64,000 bases of DNA from Candidatus Stahliibacteriota bacterium (GTDB lineage: Bacteria > Hydrothermota > Tepidihabitantia > SM23-42): NCBI GenBank assembly GCA_030602565.1, contig JAUVZL010000001.1, positions 47,233-111,232 of the forward strand, read 5' to 3'. The translations under genes and the position numbers were made by a program. The notes under the pieces were generated by a model. The model did not search any database. It saw nothing but the letters and a program-made list of their open reading frames with translations, and was not told where the DNA came from. Position 1 is the stretch's first letter; each line of letters starts with the position of its first letter. Shown here piece by piece: positions 9,177-18,300 of this stretch.

Positions 9177-11540
9177 TTACTTAATTACCAGTAGCTTATC
9201 TATTTGCTTTAGTCCTCCTGCGTCAATCTCAACGAAATACACACCGCAAGAAAGGTCAATAGGTTTATCGATTTTGTGAGTGCCCTGGGATATATTTCTA
9301 TTTATAAGGGCATCAACAACCCGGCCAGTTAGATCAAATATCCTTACGTTAAGGTCTGTCGTCGAACCGACGTATATTTCAAGATGTAGTCTATTCTTTG
9401 TAATCGTACTGAAATTACTGATTCTCATACCTGGCACATAAGTGTATGTGTTTTCTTCGATACCTGGATTGAAGCTAAGATCTCCAGTTACCGCATAAGC
9501 GAATCCCATTGGACCATTCGGAATACTCTGACCAATGACCGTAATATACCAAAGTCCGGTTTGCGGACTATTGATACGGGCACACTCTTCGACGTTTATA
9601 TTATCCCAGGTTGAAGGGTTTGCAGAGGACTCTCCACCACTGTAGATATTGCCTCGATAATAAGTACCACTCGGTGCAGTTAGTTCAAGATGCAAATTAT
9701 TGACGAGTGTGGAGGGTGCGCCAGATGATGCGGCAGTATCAGTCCAAGCCATGCAAACACGCAGCGGTATTGCCGAATTAACAACGAAGGAATCAGTAAT
9801 TGACATGCCTGTGGTGACACCAATAGTATCATCGATAAGGATCAAATTCCTGGAATTCCCAGCAAAGAATAGAACGCTATCAACATCAATTCTTCCCCAG
9901 CCTACATTAAAACTGGGGATCGTATAACCAACGTTTGGGTCAGCGGAAACCATTGTCATAGCCCTTAGCAAAGCAGCACTCTGATATTTGATTGAATCAG
10001 AGGTATTTGCTGTACCAGATGGGTAAAAACCGGCAAGCAGGTATTGTCGGATTAAACCAATTGCACCATTTGTCGCAGGCGTTGCCATGCTTGTTCCAGA
10101 CATGCCTTTATAGCCTGACGTGCCGGCGCCATTCGCTGACCAGAGTCCAGCCCATAGATTTGTGCCATCACCAGGTGCCATTATATTCGGTTTAATACGA
10201 TTATCCAAAGTAGGACCACGGCTGGAAAACGTGGCTATCTGATTTGAATTAGTGCTATTGAGCATCGCACCCACGGTCAGGATATTTTTTGCAATACCTG
10301 GGTTTCTAATTGTCCTACTCGAATATTCATTACCCGCTGCATAGAGATTGAGAAAATCAGGGTTTGCATAGATATAGGCATCAGTCGAAGCATCCTGTAG
10401 CAAATATGTACCACTTGAATTACCCCAACCCCAAGAGCCTGAATGCTGCAGAATTGTATAGGGTAGTCCACGACCAAGATGTATGGTATCATACATCGCT
10501 GTTAAGTTCTGGGGAACAACGAGTCCACCACTAGCATTGCCGATGTCGACGAAATAAATGCGCGCTTTCTTTGCCATCCCATCATAGGGCTGCGAACCCT
10601 GAGTAGTATCGTCACCAGCGACTGTACAGTTTACATGTGTACCATGATATCCACCTACATCACCAAAGGCCGCGCCTTGATAGTTCTTATATCCAACAAC
10701 TTTACGATGATTTGGATACACGCCCGTTCCTGTAATAGGATAGGAGGGATCATAAAACTGCTGGTGATTAGTAGTGATCCCAGTATCCGTGGTGTTGAGC
10801 ACGACACCATTACCGACCACACCATTATACCATACTTGCCGAGCGCCTGGGTTTGATGGGATACTTGAACGCCAGCCAGTTTGAGTGACCCATTGGCAAT
10901 TCTGATTTGCCACAGTAGGTTCAGACCACATCTGGATCCAGATTATGCCTGATATATTAGCGATGGTGCTGAGTTGTTCAGCATCGAGTATGATTTCCAT
11001 TGTTTTGCAAATAGGATGGTCGATTATCTCCGTAACTTCAAAGCCCATTTCCCTAATCTGCTGCGCTATGTCATTAATATCTTCATTTGGGAAAACCTGT
11101 ACTGTGGTATGGATAATACCTTTTTGATTCAGGATGTCCTTTTCGAGTTTGTACGCAGGTTGATATATCCCGGTCCATTGCACAAATGATTTTGTCTTAG
11201 CCTGTATGATCTGTTCAGCATCAACACGAACAATAAGCGCATAGTGCGGAGCATATCCAAGGATCTCAATTCCATCTGCTTTTAGTTCTTCAGTCCAGGT
11301 TTCATATATCGGACCAGTCATTTGGACCAGATAATACCCGCTTTTTTGGTAGCCACTAATCGTAAGAGCAGTCAGTAGCTGAGGTTCGCCATTACGCGTG
11401 TCAAATTCAATACCATTGGAAAACGAGATGATAGTAGCATTATCATCAGGGAATACCTCACGCGGCATTACCACACCGTGTTTGTGTATATTGGTAGCGC
11501 CCAAACATGTTATGACCAATAATAACGATACCAATTTCAT
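9177..11540 (-). CDS. secreted subtilisin-like serine protease (peptidase S8) with N-terminal propeptide and C-terminal T9SS-type sorting domain
   Basis: The Asp/His/Ser triad motifs DTGI, HGTHVNCTVAG and GTSMATP are present. The C-terminal ~75 aa (VRIFDLTGRVV...GVYFVEI...KLLVIK) matches the T9SS CTD pattern. The signal peptide reads MKLVSLLLVITCLG. The start is set at the second ATG (11540), preceded by GGAGG, rather than 11555. Confidence 0.85.
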   Translation of the reverse strand: MKLVSLLLVITCLGATNIHKHGVVMPREVFPDDNATIISFSNGIEFDTRNGEPQLLTALTISGYQKSGYYLVQMTGPIYETWTEELKADGIEILGYAPHYALIVRVDAEQIIQAKTKSFVQWTGIYQPAYKLEKDILNQKGIIHTTVQVFPNEDINDIAQQIREMGFEVTEIIDHPICKTMEIILDAEQLSTIANISGIIWIQMWSEPTVANQNCQWVTQTGWRSSIPSNPGARQVWYNGVVGNGVVLNTTDTGITTNHQQFYDPSYPITGTGVYPNHRKVVGYKNYQGAAFGDVGGYHGTHVNCTVAGDDTTQGSQPYDGMAKKARIYFVDIGNASGGLVVPQNLTAMYDTIHLGRGLPYTILQHSGSWGWGNSSGTYLLQDASTDAYIYANPDFLNLYAAGNEYSSRTIRNPGIAKNILTVGAMLNSTNSNQIATFSSRGPTLDNRIKPNIMAPGDGTNLWAGLWSANGAGTSGYKGMSGTSMATPATNGAIGLIRQYLLAGFYPSGTANTSDSIKYQSAALLRAMTMVSADPNVGYTIPSFNVGWGRIDVDSVLFFAGNSRNLILIDDTIGVTTGMSITDSFVVNSAIPLRVCMAWTDTAASSGAPSTLVNNLHLELTAPSGTYYRGNIYSGGESSANPSTWDNINVEECARINSPQTGLWYITVIGQSIPNGPMGFAYAVTGDLSFNPGIEENTYTYVPGMRISNFSTITKNRLHLEIYVGSTTDLNVRIFDLTGRVVDALINRNISQGTHKIDKPIDLSCGVYFVEIDAGGLKQIDKLLVIK

Positions 11541-11572
11541 ATGACCTCCTTTCATATATTTAAGTCTCTGAT

Positions 11573-11600
11573 ATTATACTGAATATTATTCTTGTGTCAA
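11573..11600 (-). promoter_or_regulatory. perfect consensus sigma70 promoter (TTGACA-16-TATAAT) for the S8 protease
   Basis: On the minus strand, TTGACA (rc of 11595-11600) is followed by a 16-nt spacer and TATAAT (rc of 11573-11578). A UTR with GGAGG and the ATG follow. Confidence 0.55.
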
Positions 11601-11744
11601 TGGCTTGCAATACCTAATATGTTGACTGGTCACATCAGGTGTGTATACTTTGAAAAGCCGTTTAAAACGGCAAAGTTATTGAGTTACTAAAAAACGTTTT
11701 GACCGTTGATTGAGTCACAAGTGATTAGAAGTGAGTTTACAGCT

Positions 11745-11782
11745 ACGCGGTTACGCTGATATTCAAAAAAAGGGGGAGAGGT
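11745..11782. repeat. left copy of a 39-bp inverted repeat pair (partner at 13118-13156)
   Basis: acgcggttacgctgatattcaaaaaaagggggagaggt matches the rc of 13118-13156 at about 36 of 39 positions. Its GGGGGAGAGG doubles as the SD for the 11783 gene. Confidence 0.6.
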
Positions 11783-12082
11783 ATGTTACGAATAAACGAG
11801 AACAATGAGGGACAAAATGAACATGCTCCCGAACTCGTCGTTGTACTCAGCACATTTAGTCTTGGTGACGTTGCAATCGTAAAATCAATACTTGATGCAG
11901 CTGATATCCAATACTTTTTCAAAGGTGAACGTTTTCTTGGTTTGGTCAAGCCATGGGCTGATCCAGCCAAGCTAATCGTCAAGAAAGCACAGGCTAAAAA
12001 GGTCAAAAGATTACTTAAAGACCTGAAACTACAGGACTGTAGTTTTTTCGCACCGTCTGGGAATAAAGGTGATACTACTTAG
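11783..12082 (+). CDS. DUF2007-like small protein (putative signal-transducing protein family)
   Basis: The pattern LVVVLSTFSLGDVAIVKSILDAADIQYFFKGE...LIVKKAQAKKVKRLL fits DUF2007. A strong SD is present. Length is 99 aa. Confidence 0.5.
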   Translation: MLRINENNEGQNEHAPELVVVLSTFSLGDVAIVKSILDAADIQYFFKGERFLGLVKPWADPAKLIVKKAQAKKVKRLLKDLKLQDCSFFAPSGNKGDTT

Positions 12083-12186
12083 TTATCTCCCTATTTTACA
12101 AGACTTTTTATCGATAGATTAAACAAAATTATAAGTATATCGAGGCAAAAAATTGGTTTTAATGCATTTCTATACAATCTCCACCC

Positions 12187-12293
12187 TTGATTTTCTTGGC
12201 AGGTTGAGTATAATTTATATAGAAGAGGCATTATTGCTTTTGCTTCTTTCTTGAACCGCAAACCTGTCCAGTATTGGATGGGTTTGCGTTTTT
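12187..12293 (+). ncRNA. candidate small RNA (~70 nt) with promoter (TTGATT-16-TATAAT) and Rho-independent terminator
   Basis: The -35 TTGATT lies at 12187-12192 and a perfect -10 TATAAT at 12209-12214. The predicted TSS is near 12221. A terminator stem CGCAAACC/GGTTTGCG (12257-12288) is followed by TTTTT (12289-12293). There is no ORF between. Confidence 0.4.
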
Positions 12294-12318
12294 AGTACAA
12301 TAAACAAGTAAGTCATTT

Positions 12319-12378
12319 GAATCCCAAGGGATTGGAAGAGATCACTACGTGTTGGAATCCCAAGGGGATTGGAAGAGA
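12319..12378. repeat. tandem pair of 23/24-bp repeats, each containing the palindrome AATCCCAAGGGATT
   Basis: GAATCCCAAGGGATTGGAAGAGA (12319-12341) and GAATCCCAAGGGGATTGGAAGAGA (12355-12378) are separated by a 13-bp spacer. Confidence 0.6.
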
Positions 12379-12386
12379 GAATGTAT

Positions 12387-12423
12387 CAAATACCTAAACA
12401 CCTAAATTCCTAAATACCTAAAG
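12387..12423. repeat. CCTAAATACCTAAA-family repeat module
   Basis: The sequence reads caaatacctaaacacctaaattcctaaatacctaaag. Confidence 0.6.
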
Positions 12424-12635
12424 ACAAATTCCAAGAAACAAAAAGAAATGGCACTGCCTCTCGAAAAACTCGAGACCTTCGGCTGGAACAGTTTTAATTC
12501 CCTTCATTTTAAATCATTCCATTCGAAGAATCCATTCCAGTGTGAAACACTCATTTCCATACGAAGTATCTCTTCTATGCTTAGCATCATTTCTCTTTGC
12601 CCTTTGTGCTGGAAGGGAGCTGCGCTGGAAATATA

Positions 12636-12756
12636 GAAACGGAGAATTGGAGAAACGGTGAAACGGAGTATAGTGAGTATCAGAGAATATCGTATTCGTA
12701 AATCGTGCATCGTACTCGTAAAAAAACGATAATAACGGAACTAACGGACGAAACGT
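12636..12756. repeat. CGTATTCGTAAATCG-family dispersed repeat (copy 1), with GAAACGG heptamer repeats
   Basis: gaaacggagaattggagaaacggtgaaacggag...gagtatcagagaatatcgtattcgtaaatcgtgcatcgtactcgtaaaaaaacgataataacggaactaacgg is homologous to the copies at 36860, 61190 (rc) and 62262. Confidence 0.65.
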
Positions 12757-13117
12757 CTTTTAATAACTAAATTACTTAGTTACCTAATAACTGTTTTGTT
12801 CAGTTACTCAATAAATCGGATGACTACATCTATAGTGTAATGAATACAGAAATACTGGAGGTCAATGATCACCATAAGGAATAACCAACGCAGACGATTG
12901 AATGCCGGCTTTCCGAGCTGCTTTTTCCTTATTTTGCAATGCTTTCAAGCGTATTCGCCTTCGATTTCTTGGGTCTGATAATGGTTATTATGCAAACTTG
13001 ATAATTTTCGAGTTCTGATGACCAGCAAAAGGCTATTGTCAAAGAAACAAAATATCGCCAAATATCCACATTAAAACCGTAAAACAAACTTCCTGTTATT
13101 TTTGAAATCTTGGATCA

Positions 13118-13156
13118 ACCTCTCCCCCTTTTTTTGAGTATCAGAGTAACCGCGTA
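13118..13156. repeat. right copy (inverted) of the 39-bp inverted repeat pair
   Basis: The rc reads acgcggttactctgatactcaaaaaaaagggggagaggt. It shares gagtatcagag with the 12668 repeat copy. Confidence 0.6.
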
Positions 13157-13253
13157 TTAGAGTAATGGCATAACACAAGCACAGAGAATTAGAGAGCAGG
13201 AGATTACCACGGTCATCTCTGATGACCTCGCAATGACATTTTGTCCTGATATC

Positions 13254-13439
13254 CTATATTTTTCCTGTATAATAGAATATCTTTTTACAGTCTTCGCATT
13301 TAAAAAGGTTTTCTGGTCTCTGCTTTTTCTTGATCGGTTTCGGATTGACTCTTGTGTTTTGCACAGGATACAGGTAGTTCACATTATTGCTGTTGCAATA
13401 CGGGCACTTCATTTTATCAGTGTGTTTCTTCTCAGACAT
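13254..13439 (-). CDS. small basic zinc-ribbon protein (61 aa, CPYC...CEDC)
   Basis: An AAGGA SD lies 7 nt before the ATG. Two CxxC pairs are present. It is driven by the perfect consensus promoter at 13467-13495. Confidence 0.5.
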   Translation of the reverse strand: MSEKKHTDKMKCPYCNSNNVNYLYPVQNTRVNPKPIKKKQRPENLFKCEDCKKIFYYTGKI

Positions 13440-13466
13440 AGTGATATCCTTATACCCTGCTATTGC

Positions 13467-13495
13467 ATTATACTTTCTCTTCTGATCAATGTCAA
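13467..13495 (-). promoter_or_regulatory. perfect consensus sigma70 promoter (TTGACA-17-TATAAT) for the zinc-ribbon gene
   Basis: On the minus strand, TTGACA (rc of 13490-13495) is followed by a 17-nt spacer and TATAAT (rc of 13467-13472). Confidence 0.55.
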
Positions 13496-13503
13496 GGTAT
13501 AAT

Positions 13504-13781
13504 CAGAAACTTGGACACATTGTTTAATAGACATTTTAGGAAACCCTCACCCTTACCCTCTCCCTTTCTAAGGGAGAGGGTGTCATTCTTTTTAGCTATC
13601 CTCTCCTCTCTGAGGAGAGGATAAAAGCCTGCCTTGAACCCTGAAAGTGTCATTCTGAACCATGCCCTGAACTTGTTTCATGGGTTGGTTCAGAATCTCT
13701 TCAGGGCAGGCTCTTTCCAGGGGTGAGGAGTTCATTTAATAAATTCCAAAATCAAGGGAGGAAGATATGTCTAAGTTTCTG
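13504..13781. mobile_element. MITE copy 1 (278 bp): 16-bp TIRs CAGAAACTTGGACACA / rc TATGTCTAAGTTTCTG, with 7-bp TSD GTATAAT/GTATAGT
   Basis: The left TIR is at 13504-13519 and the right TIR at 13766-13781. Flanking 7-mers at 13497-13503 and 13782-13788 match 6 of 7. The interior is packed with GA-rich palindromes (CCCTCTCCCTT..AAGGGAGAGGG, ATCCTCTCCTC..GAGGAGAGGAT) and a long imperfect hairpin, all enclosed by ccctcaccc/ggggtgagg. Confidence 0.65.
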
Positions 13782-13833
13782 GTATAGTACCAGTTCGATA
13801 GTTGTACAATTATGCAACTGTACAATTGTAATA

Positions 13834-14430
13834 TTAGTCTTTATGCTTTTTTCTTATTCTAATTAATGCGGCTTCGAGTTTTATAAATTTCTCTGTCTTA
13901 CGAATGAATTTATTAAGGTCGATTTTATGTTTTCTGGCGAGTTTTCTTACGATAGGCAATGGCTCTGGATCTGCCTTTTTCCAAACTGTTCGGAGTTCTC
14001 TCAAAAAAATATTTGCGGTCACTGGACCAATGCCCTTAAATGATTGTAGAATTGATTCTAATTCCTTTTTATCCTTTGCAATTTCATGAATCTTTGTTAA
14101 TGGCTTTTCACCGTATTTATCCAAGAGGTCTTTGCTTATCTCAAGCAATTTTGTTGCAGTACTGAAATCGTATCTGACATATCCACCTGCATCGAGCACT
14201 TGAACAAGCCTGTCCCATCCAGCCCTAAGGATCTCGCTTGGGCATAGAATACCTGCCTTCTCAAATTCTCGGTATGTTTTTATTGCAATATTCTCGCTAA
14301 TTCTTTTTCCAAAAAGAATGGATGCCAAAAACCATTTGAATGTCTCTTTTTCATTTTTGGTTTTGACGTTTATTCCGAGGTCTGTAGAATAGAGACAACC
14401 ATATTGAGAAATCAATTTTTTTATATCCAT
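13834..14430 (-). CDS. HhH-GPD superfamily DNA glycosylase-like protein (endonuclease III-like fold)
   Basis: FKGIGPVTANIFLRELR resembles the HhH motif (LPGVGxKTA). FLASILFGKRISENIAIKTY resembles the EndoIII helix. The start is set at the first ATG with a GAGGA SD (MDIKKLISQYG). The listed 14478 start is TTG. Confidence 0.5.
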   Translation of the reverse strand: MDIKKLISQYGCLYSTDLGINVKTKNEKETFKWFLASILFGKRISENIAIKTYREFEKAGILCPSEILRAGWDRLVQVLDAGGYVRYDFSTATKLLEISKDLLDKYGEKPLTKIHEIAKDKKELESILQSFKGIGPVTANIFLRELRTVWKKADPEPLPIVRKLARKHKIDLNKFIRKTEKFIKLEAALIRIRKKHKD

Positions 14431-14598
14431 CTTTTTCCTCACATCAATATTTTGTAATAGTTCCCGAAATTTTTTCAATGACTTTAGGAAGTCGGATTTT
14501 TGTGGCTATTTCTCCAAAAACAAAATCTGTGAAAACAATGATGCCGACAATTAGAATGGATTGCATATAATTTATCCTCTATTCATACTAAGTATTGT

Positions 14599-14626
14599 AT
14601 TATAAGAATGTATTTCCCTATGTCAA
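14599..14626 (-). promoter_or_regulatory. perfect consensus sigma70 promoter (TTGACA-16-TATAAT) upstream of the glycosylase-like gene
   Basis: On the minus strand, TTGACA is rc of 14621-14626 and TATAAT is rc of 14599-14604. It lies 4 bp from the TSD of MITE copy 2. Confidence 0.55.
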
Positions 14627-14636
14627 TATCTAAAAC

Positions 14637-14840
14637 CAGAGACTTGGACACAAATTTTAAACTGCAATAGTATAAAATCCTCTCCCCTTGCGGGAGAGGA
14701 CAAAGGTGAGGGGTGTATTAAATTATGAAAAAAATCACCCTCCCCCTTACCCCCTCCCGTTAAGGGAGGGGAAGTATGATGGGTTTGGATTGATGTTGAT
14801 GCAGTTCAAATTTGCTATCAAAGATGTGTCCAAGTTTCTG
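14637..14840. mobile_element. MITE copy 2 (204 bp): TIRs CAGAGACTTGGACACA / rc TGTGTCCAAGTTTCTG with perfect 7-bp TSD CTAAAAC
   Basis: The left TIR is at 14637-14652 and the right TIR at 14825-14840. The TSD is at 14630-14636 and 14841-14847. Internal palindromes include CCTCTCCCcttgcGGGAGAGG and CCCTCCCgttaaGGGAGGG. Confidence 0.7.
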
Positions 14841-14849
14841 CTAAAACAT

Positions 14850-14895
14850 CATATCGATATATGTACAATTGTGCATATGTGCATATATCGATATG
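14850..14895. promoter_or_regulatory. pair of 10-bp perfect palindromes ATATCGATAT (candidate operator) upstream of the DUF3795 gene
   Basis: CATATCGATATATG (14850-14863) and its exact rc CATATATCGATATG (14882-14895) are separated by 18 bp that contain TGTACAATTGT. Confidence 0.4.
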
Positions 14896-14981
14896 GTCGG
14901 TTGAGTGGGTGTGAATGTTCTCTTGATTCTTTTGAGAATTTGTGTATTTTTATTAGGTATTTAACTTCTTAAGGAGGTAAT

Positions 14982-15323
14982 ATGGAAAAAATGATTGCAT
15001 ATTGCGGGATTGAATGTTCAAAATGTCCTGCATTCATTGCCAAAAAAGAAAATAATGATGAATTAAGGAAAAAAACGGCTGAAGAGTGGTCAAAACAATT
15101 CAACGCGGAAATGAAACCAGAGGATATAAACTGCGATGGTTGTTTATCCACAGGCGTACTCGTTGGTTATTGCAATATATGTGAAATAAGAAAATGTGGT
15201 GTTGAAAAGAAAGTACAGAACTGTGCATATTGTGATGGCTATATCTGCGAGAAACTCGAAAAATGGTTCAAGAATGTACCTGACGCAAAACAAAGATTAG
15301 ATACAATAAAGAAGAATCTATAA
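14982..15323 (+). CDS. DUF3795 family cysteine-rich protein
   Basis: MxxxIAYCGIECSKCPAF... and further CxxC/CDGY motifs are typical of DUF3795. AAGGAGG lies 6 nt before the ATG. Confidence 0.7.
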   Translation: MEKMIAYCGIECSKCPAFIAKKENNDELRKKTAEEWSKQFNAEMKPEDINCDGCLSTGVLVGYCNICEIRKCGVEKKVQNCAYCDGYICEKLEKWFKNVPDAKQRLDTIKKNL

Positions 15324-15345
15324 ATATCCGGGTATACTTATCTTA

Positions 15346-18300
15346 TTAACGTACTAATACGATCTGTCTGGTCAGTGTTCTATTGTCTGCATTCAACTGA
15401 CAAAAGTATACACCATTAGGTACTACCCTTTCAAGCTCATCAGTACCGTTCCATGACACCGATGTCACAGATTCATTCATATCATACGGATCAACGTTGA
15501 ATACTCTAATAAGACGTCCAGTTACATCATAGATTTTCAGCGAAGCATTCGTTGTATTCAGTATTTGGCATCTAATAATAGTGTTTTGTTTAAATGGATT
15601 CGGATAAATACTGAGCTGGGTGACGATATCTGATAAACCGTGTTCCAGAACGCCGGTGCCAGTATTATAGAGAACTGTGACATTATTTGAATTGTAGTTT
15701 CCACAAGCAATATCAAGTGCACCATCCAGGTCGTAATCAGCAGACATTATCCCCCAAGGGCTCGTTCCAACAGTATACGTTGCCAAATTACCATACGTTC
15801 CATCACCATTATTCAGTAATACAGCAACAGTATTTGTGCCATTATTGCTGCCGATCAGGTCAATGTCACCATCGCCATCAAAATCACCACCGTGGAGAGC
15901 TCTGGTATTATTGCCTGTTGCGTATCCTGTCGGATTAGAAAAAGTACCGTCTCCATTATTAAGTATCACAGCGATATCATTGCCGCTATAATTAGCGGTC
16001 GCAAAGTCAACATAATTATCGCCATTAAAATCATTACCATAAACTGCGGTTGGATTATCACCAACTGCATAATTTGTGATTTCCGGGAAATTACCATCAC
16101 CATCATTCGACAATATTGAGATATTATCATTCCCAGCATTGGTTACACCAAGGTCCAGATCACCATCATTATCAACATCTTTAATAGCTACACCTCGTGC
16201 CCAGGTCCCGGCAGTATACGTGTACGGACCTGAATAACTACCATTACCATTATTTAACATTACCCGGACATTTGTTCCAGAACCCCATCCATCAGTCATT
16301 ACAAGATCAATGTCATTGTCAGCATCAATATCACCGCCAGCGAGATTCTGTCCAAGAATTGCTGGTGCATAAGTAGCAAATACCGTGAAAACGCCACTGC
16401 CATTATTTTTCAAAATAACCAGATGCGATGTGCCTGGCTGATTATGTGCTGAGGCGAGGTCTATGTCGCCATCACTGTCAAAGTCGGCACCAAATAGAGC
16501 GATCGGGTCACCCTCAATCGAAGTGTATACTGGTGCGGCAAAAGTCCCGTCACCATTATTAAGCAGAACGACAACACTGTTAGGATTAGACGTTGCCGCA
16601 ATATCGATATCCCAGTCACCATCAAAATCACCGGCAAACAGACCACGCGGTTGATTGCCTGCAGTAAAGTTGAGAGGATTTTCAAATGTTCCATCTGATT
16701 GGGTCGAAACAGCAGCTGTAAAATCCCAGATAAATCCATCCAGATAAGGCCCGATCAATGACTGTATATCCTTAGACAATATCGCAGTGACGACTTCACC
16801 ATCTATAAAATCGATATCAGGATCAAGACTGACTGTCGATGTGCCGCTACTATAAATAATAGTACCTGTGTGGATACCGGTCTGCACACCCTGCACTGTA
16901 AAGGTTGAGTTATTCAGGGTCAAACTGTCCACCTCAAGGCTGAAAGTGGCATTGATATCTGTTGATTGCGGAACATCTAATTGGTACTGAACAGGATCTG
17001 TCGATGTAACATTCAGTGCTGCCTCGTTAAGCAATACAGACATACTGTCAACGCTATAATCACCGGTCACTATGTCCATGTCACGGTCATTGTCAAAATC
17101 GCCTGATAAGAGACACGACGGGCTGCTGCCTGTAATAAAGTGGGTTGCGGTAGCGAAACCACCATTGCCATTTCCCAGCAAAATAGAGACTGTGTTTGCA
17201 TTCACATTAGAGACCGCAAGATCATGATTCCCATCAGCATCATGATCAGTAGCATATATTCCACTCGGACCATCACCCGCTGCAAAATGCACGGCTGATC
17301 CGAATGTACCGTCACCATTGCCGAGCAACCGCGACACATTATCCGAATCGAAGTTTGCGGTCGCGATATCAAGATCGCCGTCACCATTGAAATCTGCACT
17401 ATAGACACCATGAGGATTCGTACCAACAGAAAAGTTGTCAACCGCACCAAACCCGCCAGTGCCATCCCCTAGAAGGATAGAAATGTTGTTCGTTGTGCTG
17501 TTCGTGGTTACGACATCGAGATACCCATCATTATTAAAGTCTCCACACACAATTCTGAGCGGTGACCCACCAACTGTATAGTTCATCGGACCACTGAACG
17601 TGCCGTTGCCATCTCCTATGAGTATGGAAACCGTCCCCGAATTGCGATTAACTACAGCAATATCAAGGAGACCATCACAATTGAAATCCCCGCAACAGAT
17701 ACCCTGTGGTGCGATATCTGCAGCATACGAACTCCCAACCGTGAACGTGCCGTCCCCATTACCGAGTAGTATCGATACATCGTTGCTGCCTTCATTGGTG
17801 ACTGCAAGATCAAGCCATGGATCCACGTTGAAATTGAAATTACTCGTGCATATACCTGTCGGTCCAGATCCTACCGGGTAATTAACTGCGGTTGCAAACG
17901 TGCCATCTCCGTTACCGATTAGCACTGATACTTCATCTGAATAGTAATTGGCAAAGGCAACATCCAGGTTATCATCCCGATAAAAATCTCCTGTGACCCC
18001 ATCCAACGGACCGTCCCCAAGCATATACTGGTCACTGTGCGTAAACAATCCAGAACCGCTATCAACACGGCAAACGAACTGCCAGATAAAACCCTCAAGG
18101 GAATCACCAGAAGGAGTCCTGATATCCTTTGTAAGAACTGCGGTCACTATCTCTCCACAATGAAAAGTGCTATCAGGATCGATCGTGACAAAGCGCGCTG
18201 TGGTGTCATATGTAATCGTACTTGATATAAATCCCGTGAACTTTCCATGGATCTGCGTAGTGTTTACAGTAAACGATACAGGATCCATGTCGAGGTTGAA

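Follow-up and report, generated by a model that had tools for sequence, protein, structure and literature searches.

A candidate stand-alone small RNA gene with its own promoter and terminator in a narrow clade of Stahlbacteria (WOR-3)

The locus described here lies within a 64-kb window, by which we mean the whole stretch of DNA that was analysed. Its genes follow a fixed order: HisRS, a minus-strand gene for an S8 protease that bears a T9SS sorting domain, a small DUF2007-like gene (orf99) on the plus strand, and an intergenic plus-strand element at 12187-12293. The stop codon of orf99 is at 12082, and the promoter of the element starts about 105 nt beyond it. A preliminary description of this DNA proposed that the element encodes a small RNA (sRNA) of about 70 nt with its own promoter and terminator, and assigned the upstream gene to DUF2007. 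The family assignment stands in part: the protein of the window has no Pfam match, and its orthologues match Pfam DUF2007 at E values of 8e-4 to 0.2, below the gathering score.

The element is bounded by two signals, a promoter and a terminator, and both are present where the preliminary description had placed them. A promoter scan finds the -35 hexamer TTGATT at 12187-12192 (+), within the invariant block CTTGATTTT, and the -10 hexamer TATAAT at 12209-12214 (+) after a 16-nt spacer. Together they match the TTGACA/TATAAT consensus at 10 of 12 positions, with a spacer inside the 16-18-nt norm for sigma-70-type promoters. Such sites are not rare: those with at least 10 matches in 12 occur once per ~2.2 kb of strand in the 64-kb window, and the chance of finding one 30-100 nt upstream of a given terminator is ~3%, so that the promoter match by itself is weak evidence. 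It is conservation across genomes, and not the promoter match alone, that raises the element above chance.

The terminator hairpin occupies 12257-12288 (+); the terminator scan gives a 14-bp stem (CGCAAACCTGTCCA/TGGATGGGTTTGCG) with 7 G-C pairs and the loop GTAT, followed directly by the U-tract TTTTT at 12289-12293 (+). The site at 12257-12293 is by far the strongest of six terminators in the surrounding 3.5 kb, where 2.4 are expected.

The neighbouring HisRS gene retrieved syntenic MAG contigs of Candidatus Stahlbacteria / WOR-3, with HisRS protein identities to the window of 95% (L002), 94% (L003), and 75% (L004). Further loci came from look-ups of the small upstream protein, one pattern scan of metagenomes, and look-ups of S8-protease orthologues; identical loci were grouped (L011 = L012 = L019; L017 = L024-27; L022 = L023), and four (L021, L028, L029, and L033) were left out because their contigs end too near the S8 gene. 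A covariance model was built from eight copies of the element. It finds exactly one copy per locus, at 77-103 bits, with the window's element at 103 bits and L013, which is cut by the end of its contig, at 58 bits. The element is thus present in nine further variants: L014, L002, L003, L010, L004, L011/12/19, L017/24-27, L013, and L022/23. It always lies downstream of the divergent S8(-)/orf99(+) pair.

Beyond these variants the trail ends quickly. S8 orthologues of ~62% identity (L030/31, L034/35) have other neighbour genes and no covariance-model match, and the metagenome pattern scan gave, besides the same clade, just four chance matches in coding DNA. The lack of a match at the ~62%-identical S8 loci argues that the element is confined to a narrow clade, which on these comparisons appears to be a roughly genus-level group within Stahlbacteria (WOR-3). 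Viral contigs contain four chance matches to a 17-mer of the element (described below) and no full copy. The element is neither mobile nor viral: it is single copy and has no copies on viral contigs.

How strongly is the element conserved? When the window is compared with the L004 lineage, the four-fold degenerate sites of HisRS and S8 prove saturated, at 36-48% identity, and the 104-nt flanks on each side of the element are 50-53% identical. From the -35 hexamer to the U-tract, the element itself is 80-84% identical, about the conservation of codon positions 1 and 2 of HisRS and S8. This pattern suggests that the element is under purifying selection, with its putatively transcribed part far above neutral sites.

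Conservation within the promoter has the form of a phylogenetic footprint. Both hexamers and the 16-nt spacing are unchanged in 9/9 variants while the surrounding sequence diverges. In the variant alignment, CTTGATTTT and TATAAT are constant; the spacer between them reads CTTGGCAGGTTGAG, TTTCAAAGAGTGAT, ATATTTAGATTGAG, or TTTCTCAGACTGGG and is variable apart from its AG and TG dinucleotides. The divergent S8 and orf99 promoters served as a control and display the same footprint, with conserved TTGAC/TATA-type hexamers and a free spacer; promoters of the sigma-70 type are therefore evidently in use in these organisms, as far as sequence can tell.

Downstream of this promoter, we infer a non-coding transcript of ~73 nt at 12221-12293 (+), with its 5' end at the A located 7 nt after the -10 hexamer and its 3' end in the U-tract; the fold statistics and the covariance-model match both support it. 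The predicted RNA has a folding energy of -31.9 kcal/mol; shuffled sequences average -14.7 +/- 2.8 (z = -6.2), and none of 200 shuffles is as stable. In each lineage tested, the plus-strand RNA folds better than the minus-strand RNA, by 3.5-10 kcal/mol. The predicted folds give one layout common to all lineages: a 5' stem-loop, an unpaired linker, and the terminator hairpin.

The 5' stem-loop (12222-12246, +) has two tiers, a GGCA-UUAU-UGCY hairpin on a short AGAA/UUCU stem. Its inner stem GGCA/UGCU (12227-12230 / 12235-12238, +) closes the loop UUAU; its outer stem pairs 12222-12225 with 12243-12246 (+). This is the second hairpin, AGAAG...CTTCT, that had been noticed at the outset, with AGAAG (12221-12225) complementary to CTTCT (12243-12247). 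No variant loses the inner stem, which shows a single G.U -> G-C change, and just 3 pairs of the outer stem are common to all lineages. The linker is pyrimidine-rich, unpaired in the predictions, and ends in the invariant UUCUUGAAC. These letters are the first ~9 nt of an invariant 17-mer, TTCTTGAACCGCAAACC (12248-12264, +; variant alignment), and are unpaired in the predicted fold of every lineage; we regard UUCUUGAAC as a candidate seed. Beside the 17-mer, GGCATTATTGC is likewise constant within the element, as is the stretch UUCUUGAACC.

The terminator hairpin is retained in all variants, with a G+C-rich stem and the U-tract immediately 3' of it. Its loop differs from copy to copy, both in its letters and in its length of 4-8 nt (GTAT, TTAT, ACAT, CTAAT, ATAGT, AATGCTTA, AATATTC, and TTATTAT), and its arms are unchanged save for three one-sided changes: U.G -> C-G, G-C -> G.U, and the loss of one pair. 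The first two are G.U/G-C swaps that keep the pairing; the lost pair is the C-G at the base of the stem, which becomes a C/U mismatch in L004- and L022-type copies. The U-tract is T-rich in most variants and weaker in L004 (TTCATTAT) and L010 (GTATTT). The covariation analysis suggested in the preliminary description was run on 8-9 variants with RNAalifold and manual pair counts. It returned no double change: 0 of 17 predicted pairs carry a compensatory change in an alignment with little variation, and three of the 17 show single G.U/G-C changes. With no compensatory change to draw on, the predicted structure is compatible with the data, and covariation offers no proof of it.

If the conserved stretch is not an RNA gene, it might encode a tiny protein of 21 codons, with an ATT start at 12230, a TAG stop at 12293-12295, and the Shine-Dalgarno-like AGAAGAGG in front. 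This purine run lies 5 nt before ATT-ATT, and of the five codons that differ between L004 and the window, three would keep their amino acid. The frame nevertheless has no ATG, GTG, or TTG start, measures 21, 14, 43, and 7 codons in different lineages, and is shifted after codon 6 by a 1-nt deletion in both L013 and L022/23. Across the variants, no reading frame is conserved on either strand, and indels break each candidate; we consider a small protein extremely improbable. The earlier statement that the element holds no open reading frame and no Shine-Dalgarno sequence thus survives in its first half, the frame being unconserved, and falls short in its second, since the 5' end with AGAAGAGG does resemble such a sequence. 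Two minus-strand open reading frames, at 12091-12261 and 12215-12316, were rejected as they are not kept in the L004 lineage.

A more serious contender is the gene upstream. The element might be just the end of the 3' UTR and the terminator of orf99, with the promoter-like hexamers unused. The hairpin is the first terminator-like site after the orf99 stop codon (12082), the element lies immediately downstream of the orf99-family gene wherever that gene exists, and a conserved block, CTCCCTAT..TAC, follows the stop codon. Against these points stand the invariance of the hexamers and their 16-nt spacing, when the 104 nt upstream are just ~50% identical between lineages, and the conservation of the 45 nt that precede the hairpin, a stretch that a terminator does not need. 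Moreover, L002 and L014 have lost most of orf99 by deletion and still carry the intact element with its promoter, which argues against a mere 3'-UTR terminator. We therefore judge this reading quite unlikely. A milder form is compatible with a separate RNA gene: as the element always occupies the 3' region of orf99 where orf99 exists, part of its role could be to form the 3' end of the orf99 mRNA.

Other features of orf99 and its surroundings vary between lineages. Of the spacer beyond the stop codon, the short block at 12087-12105 is the one part conserved across lineages; it reads CTCCCTATTTTAC, or CTCCCTATAATAC in L004 and L011, and might serve as a 3'-UTR element or as another -10-like box. 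The orf99-family gene of the L004 lineage starts 6-7 nt after a conserved TTGAC-N17-TATACT promoter (L004 13760-13790; L011 ~1870-1890), so that the mRNA looks leaderless there; the versions of orf99 in the window and in L003 have acquired longer 5' regions. Orthologues with an N-terminal zinc ribbon measure 118-137 aa. In the strain of the window, the left arm of a 39-nt inverted repeat (11744-11782 / 13118-13156, 95% complementary) provides orf99 with its ribosome-binding site and stands in place of the N-terminal CxxC...CxxC zinc ribbon. The repeat brackets orf99, the sRNA element, and ~850 nt of ORF-free DNA. The full pair occurs only in the window's strain, and L003 carries just the right-hand copy; the arrangement suggests a recent duplication-inversion or recombination.

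If the upstream gene does not account for the element, a downstream one might: with a promoter and then a hairpin terminator, the element is laid out like a classic attenuator and could be a leader governing read-through into a gene such as the LAGLIDADG-like one. In L004, L002, L003, and L014, the same strand carries a LAGLIDADG_3 gene, or fragments of one, 0.6-1.3 kb downstream of the element. An unconserved stretch of 570-1300 nt separates the element from that gene, which cannot be detected in the window; in L011, L022, and L024 the gene that comes next is encoded on the other strand. Furthermore, the RNA has no alternative antiterminator pairing, its 45 nt before the hairpin are too short for a riboswitch aptamer, and no Rfam cis-regulatory family matches it. 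A riboswitch or attenuator leader was rejected on the ground that no same-strand gene is consistently linked, the nearest plus-strand gene being at least 570 nt away or absent; we rate this role as most unlikely.

The LAGLIDADG_3 gene itself has a patchy history. In L004 it spans 14914-16005 and encodes 363 aa with a zinc ribbon and LAGLIDADG_3, 0.6-1.3 kb downstream of the sRNA element on the same strand. A LAGLIDADG_3 fragment alone is detected in L002 (~15150-15490) and L003 (~15070-15420). In L014 the match (2-340, residues 1-113) runs to the end of the contig, and this copy may be intact. None is detectable in the ORF-free stretch of the window at 12300-13230.

The rearranged surroundings raise a different alternative, namely that the conserved entity is a DNA-level site: an imperfect palindrome to which a protein binds, or a site for attachment or recombination that ends a block of synteny. 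Gene content downstream of the element differs between lineages while upstream synteny is stable, and both arms of the inverted repeat are invariant, as such a site would have it. Two G.T positions in the stem speak for RNA instead, because they are tolerated in plus-strand RNA but mismatched in DNA symmetry, and a substitution at one stem G.T position turns U.G into C-G. The distance between the arms also varies, from 4 to 8 nt, no second partial copy of the 3' end (an att-like direct repeat) exists in the window or in the loci, and a DNA site would leave the conserved promoter unexplained. We hold a DNA-level site to be very improbable.

The region around the element is rearranged between strains, and it contains several kinds of repeat. 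The first are the tandem palindromes at 12319-12378, which the preliminary description had considered a possible operator of the sRNA. This idea did not hold up: the palindromes come after the terminator, and five of the nine variants (L002, L004, L011, L017, and L022) lack them; they are present in L003 and L014 and displaced by ~130 nt in L010. They are separate from the sRNA element. The underlying motif of ~23 nt, GA-AATCNCAAGNGATT-NGAAGNGA, has a palindromic core and occurs in three copies, at 11713-11735, 12320-12342, and 12355-12378. Paired changes preserve the palindrome in L003 (AATCACAAGTGATT) and L010 (AATCACAGGTGATT), a pattern consistent with a binding site for a protein or with a hairpin. 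Its minus strand matches the Rfam families CRISPR-DR45 and CRISPR-DR25 at 22.7-23.5 bits, below the gathering threshold of 37. A CRISPR array at 12319-12378 was rejected: the matches are sub-threshold, there are no nearby cas genes, the palindromes are absent in 5/9 variants, and they form two copies with a ~12-nt gap, unlike arrays, which have several repeats and ~30-nt spacers.

Past the terminator lie tandem arrays of period 8 made of different words, at 12388-12422 and 12635-12668 in the window, at 1622-1669 in L010, and also in L002 and L011. The words are AAATACCT (x4.4) and AGAAACGG (x4.2), with GTCATTNA (x6) in relatives; copy numbers are strain-specific, and one array is cut by the end of contig L001. 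Inspection by eye shows more stretches rich in such words at 12690-12790. Farther downstream, a stack of perfect or near-perfect hairpins occupies 13543-13720 (13555-13581, 13597-13623, and 13652-13696, with outer arms at 13623-13638 / 13700-13715), flanked by a 61-aa zinc-ribbon ORF (13254-13439, -) and a 214-aa ORF (13834-14478, -), the latter with no Pfam match. The segment that holds the hairpin stack and both ORFs (13233-14970) is missing from L003.

The element belongs to no known RNA family. Rfam release 15, searched over the whole window at the gathering threshold, returns just two tRNAs, both elsewhere; a permissive Rfam scan of 11500-13900 (E up to 10) yields nothing that overlaps 12187-12293, and ARAGORN places no tRNA or tmRNA at the element. 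The Rfam/Infernal check proposed at the outset has thus been carried out and gives no family, and a known RNA family was ruled out at both the gathering and the permissive level. In a full-text literature search on Stahlbacteria, none of the titles listed concerns sRNAs. We regard the element as unassigned to any described family: real, well delimited, and unsurprising to a specialist.

Taken together, the invariant hexamers, conservation above neutral, the lack of a kept frame, the copies that persist without orf99, and the absence of a consistent downstream gene favor an sRNA, and the original proposal of an RNA of about 70 nt with its own promoter and terminator stands up to every comparative test that was run. 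That the element is a functional non-coding RNA gene, and as such transcribed, is in our view probable on the sequence comparisons. The best explanation for the whole, which we consider somewhat likelier than all its competitors combined, is a stand-alone gene for a non-coding RNA of ~73 nt that acts in trans by base pairing.

What might such an RNA do? Typical trans-encoded base-pairing sRNAs with an intrinsic terminator are the Hfq-dependent RyhB and MicA of enterobacteria and, in Firmicutes, RoxS/RsaE and similar sRNAs, which target Shine-Dalgarno regions through unpaired, pyrimidine-rich stretches. The element resembles this class in many respects: it is an intergenic gene of 50-100 nt with its own sigma-70-type promoter and a 5' stem-loop, its conserved pyrimidine-rich stretch, unpaired in the predicted folds, adjoins a Rho-independent terminator, it is without coding potential, and its phylogenetic range is narrow. 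As the layout of the RNA has the anatomy of a trans-encoded base-pairing sRNA, base pairing is taken as the most likely mechanism, though on this specific point our view is tentative and falls short of even confidence. The element departs from known trans-encoded sRNAs in that it has no sequence or covariance-model likeness to any Rfam family and no known target or chaperone, and in that its host is an uncultured WOR-3 bacterium.

The element can also be set beside the 'type I' 3'-UTR-associated sRNAs with their own promoter, exemplified by DapZ and MicL in enterobacteria. Like these, it sits at the 3' end of a protein gene, shares the sole terminator, and has a separate promoter. Unlike these, its promoter lies outside the coding sequence, ~105 nt past the stop codon, and the element is retained after gene loss (L002, L014), independent of a parent mRNA.

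Under the base-pairing model, RNA polymerase with the housekeeping sigma factor would start at TTGATT-16-TATAAT and stop at the intrinsic terminator; transcripts of orf99, which have no other terminator after the gene, probably end at the same hairpin. The unpaired linker would serve as the seed and pair in trans with at least one mRNA encoded elsewhere. The most plausible targets would be purine-rich ribosome-binding sites, and the outcome a change in translation or stability. We infer each of these steps (transcription, the exact 5' end, action in trans, and pairing at ribosome-binding sites) from the layout of the locus.

Searches for a target were run at several levels. A duplex scan of the 64-kb window gave no significant target; among the start regions of syntenic neighbours, taken from three lineages, no candidate was conserved or exceeded background; a search with the reverse complement of the invariant 17-mer brought out no target; and a contiguous-helix scan of 65 start regions found nothing above background. 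The CU run does pair, with G.U allowed, to many Shine-Dalgarno sequences in the window, no better than background. Because these searches covered 64 kb of a genome of probably >1 Mb, the missing target carries little weight, either against base pairing or in favor of the protein-binding role considered next.

One feature of the element sits poorly with a simple seed. Across saturated divergence, the hairpin arms are about as constant as the linker, a poor fit to a simple seed model, and arms as conserved as the presumed seed are unusual for trans-encoded sRNAs. Constancy of the arms beyond what a terminator or a seed would need hints at a protein partner or another sequence-specific role. The transcribed RNA might then bind or sequester a protein, or form part of a ribonucleoprotein, instead of pairing with mRNAs, its partner being peculiar to this Stahlbacteria clade. 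Both hairpins have arms that are constant at the sequence level despite saturated synonymous sites while their loops vary, and no convincing complementary target appears in the 64-kb window or the neighbour genes. The RNA nonetheless carries no repeated protein-binding motif, such as the GGA repeats of CsrB-type RNAs, and no partner protein gene is linked to it, the adjacent orf99 being dispensable in L002 and L014. We consider a role as a sequence-specific partner of a protein or ribonucleoprotein unlikely. If true, it would explain the frozen arms of both hairpins and not just the unpaired stretch, as well as the persistence of the RNA at the edge of a fast-rearranging region after the loss of a neighbour gene.

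The small RNA gene that we favor has a modest wider importance, as one more lineage-specific sRNA without a known target. WOR-3/Stahlbacteria have essentially no cultured members, and no small regulatory RNA is known to have been described in them. In this setting, the element is a cleanly delimited candidate and a concrete handle for the mapping of metatranscriptomes, and it indicates that sigma-70-type promoters and intrinsic terminators may be read directly from Stahlbacteria genomes.
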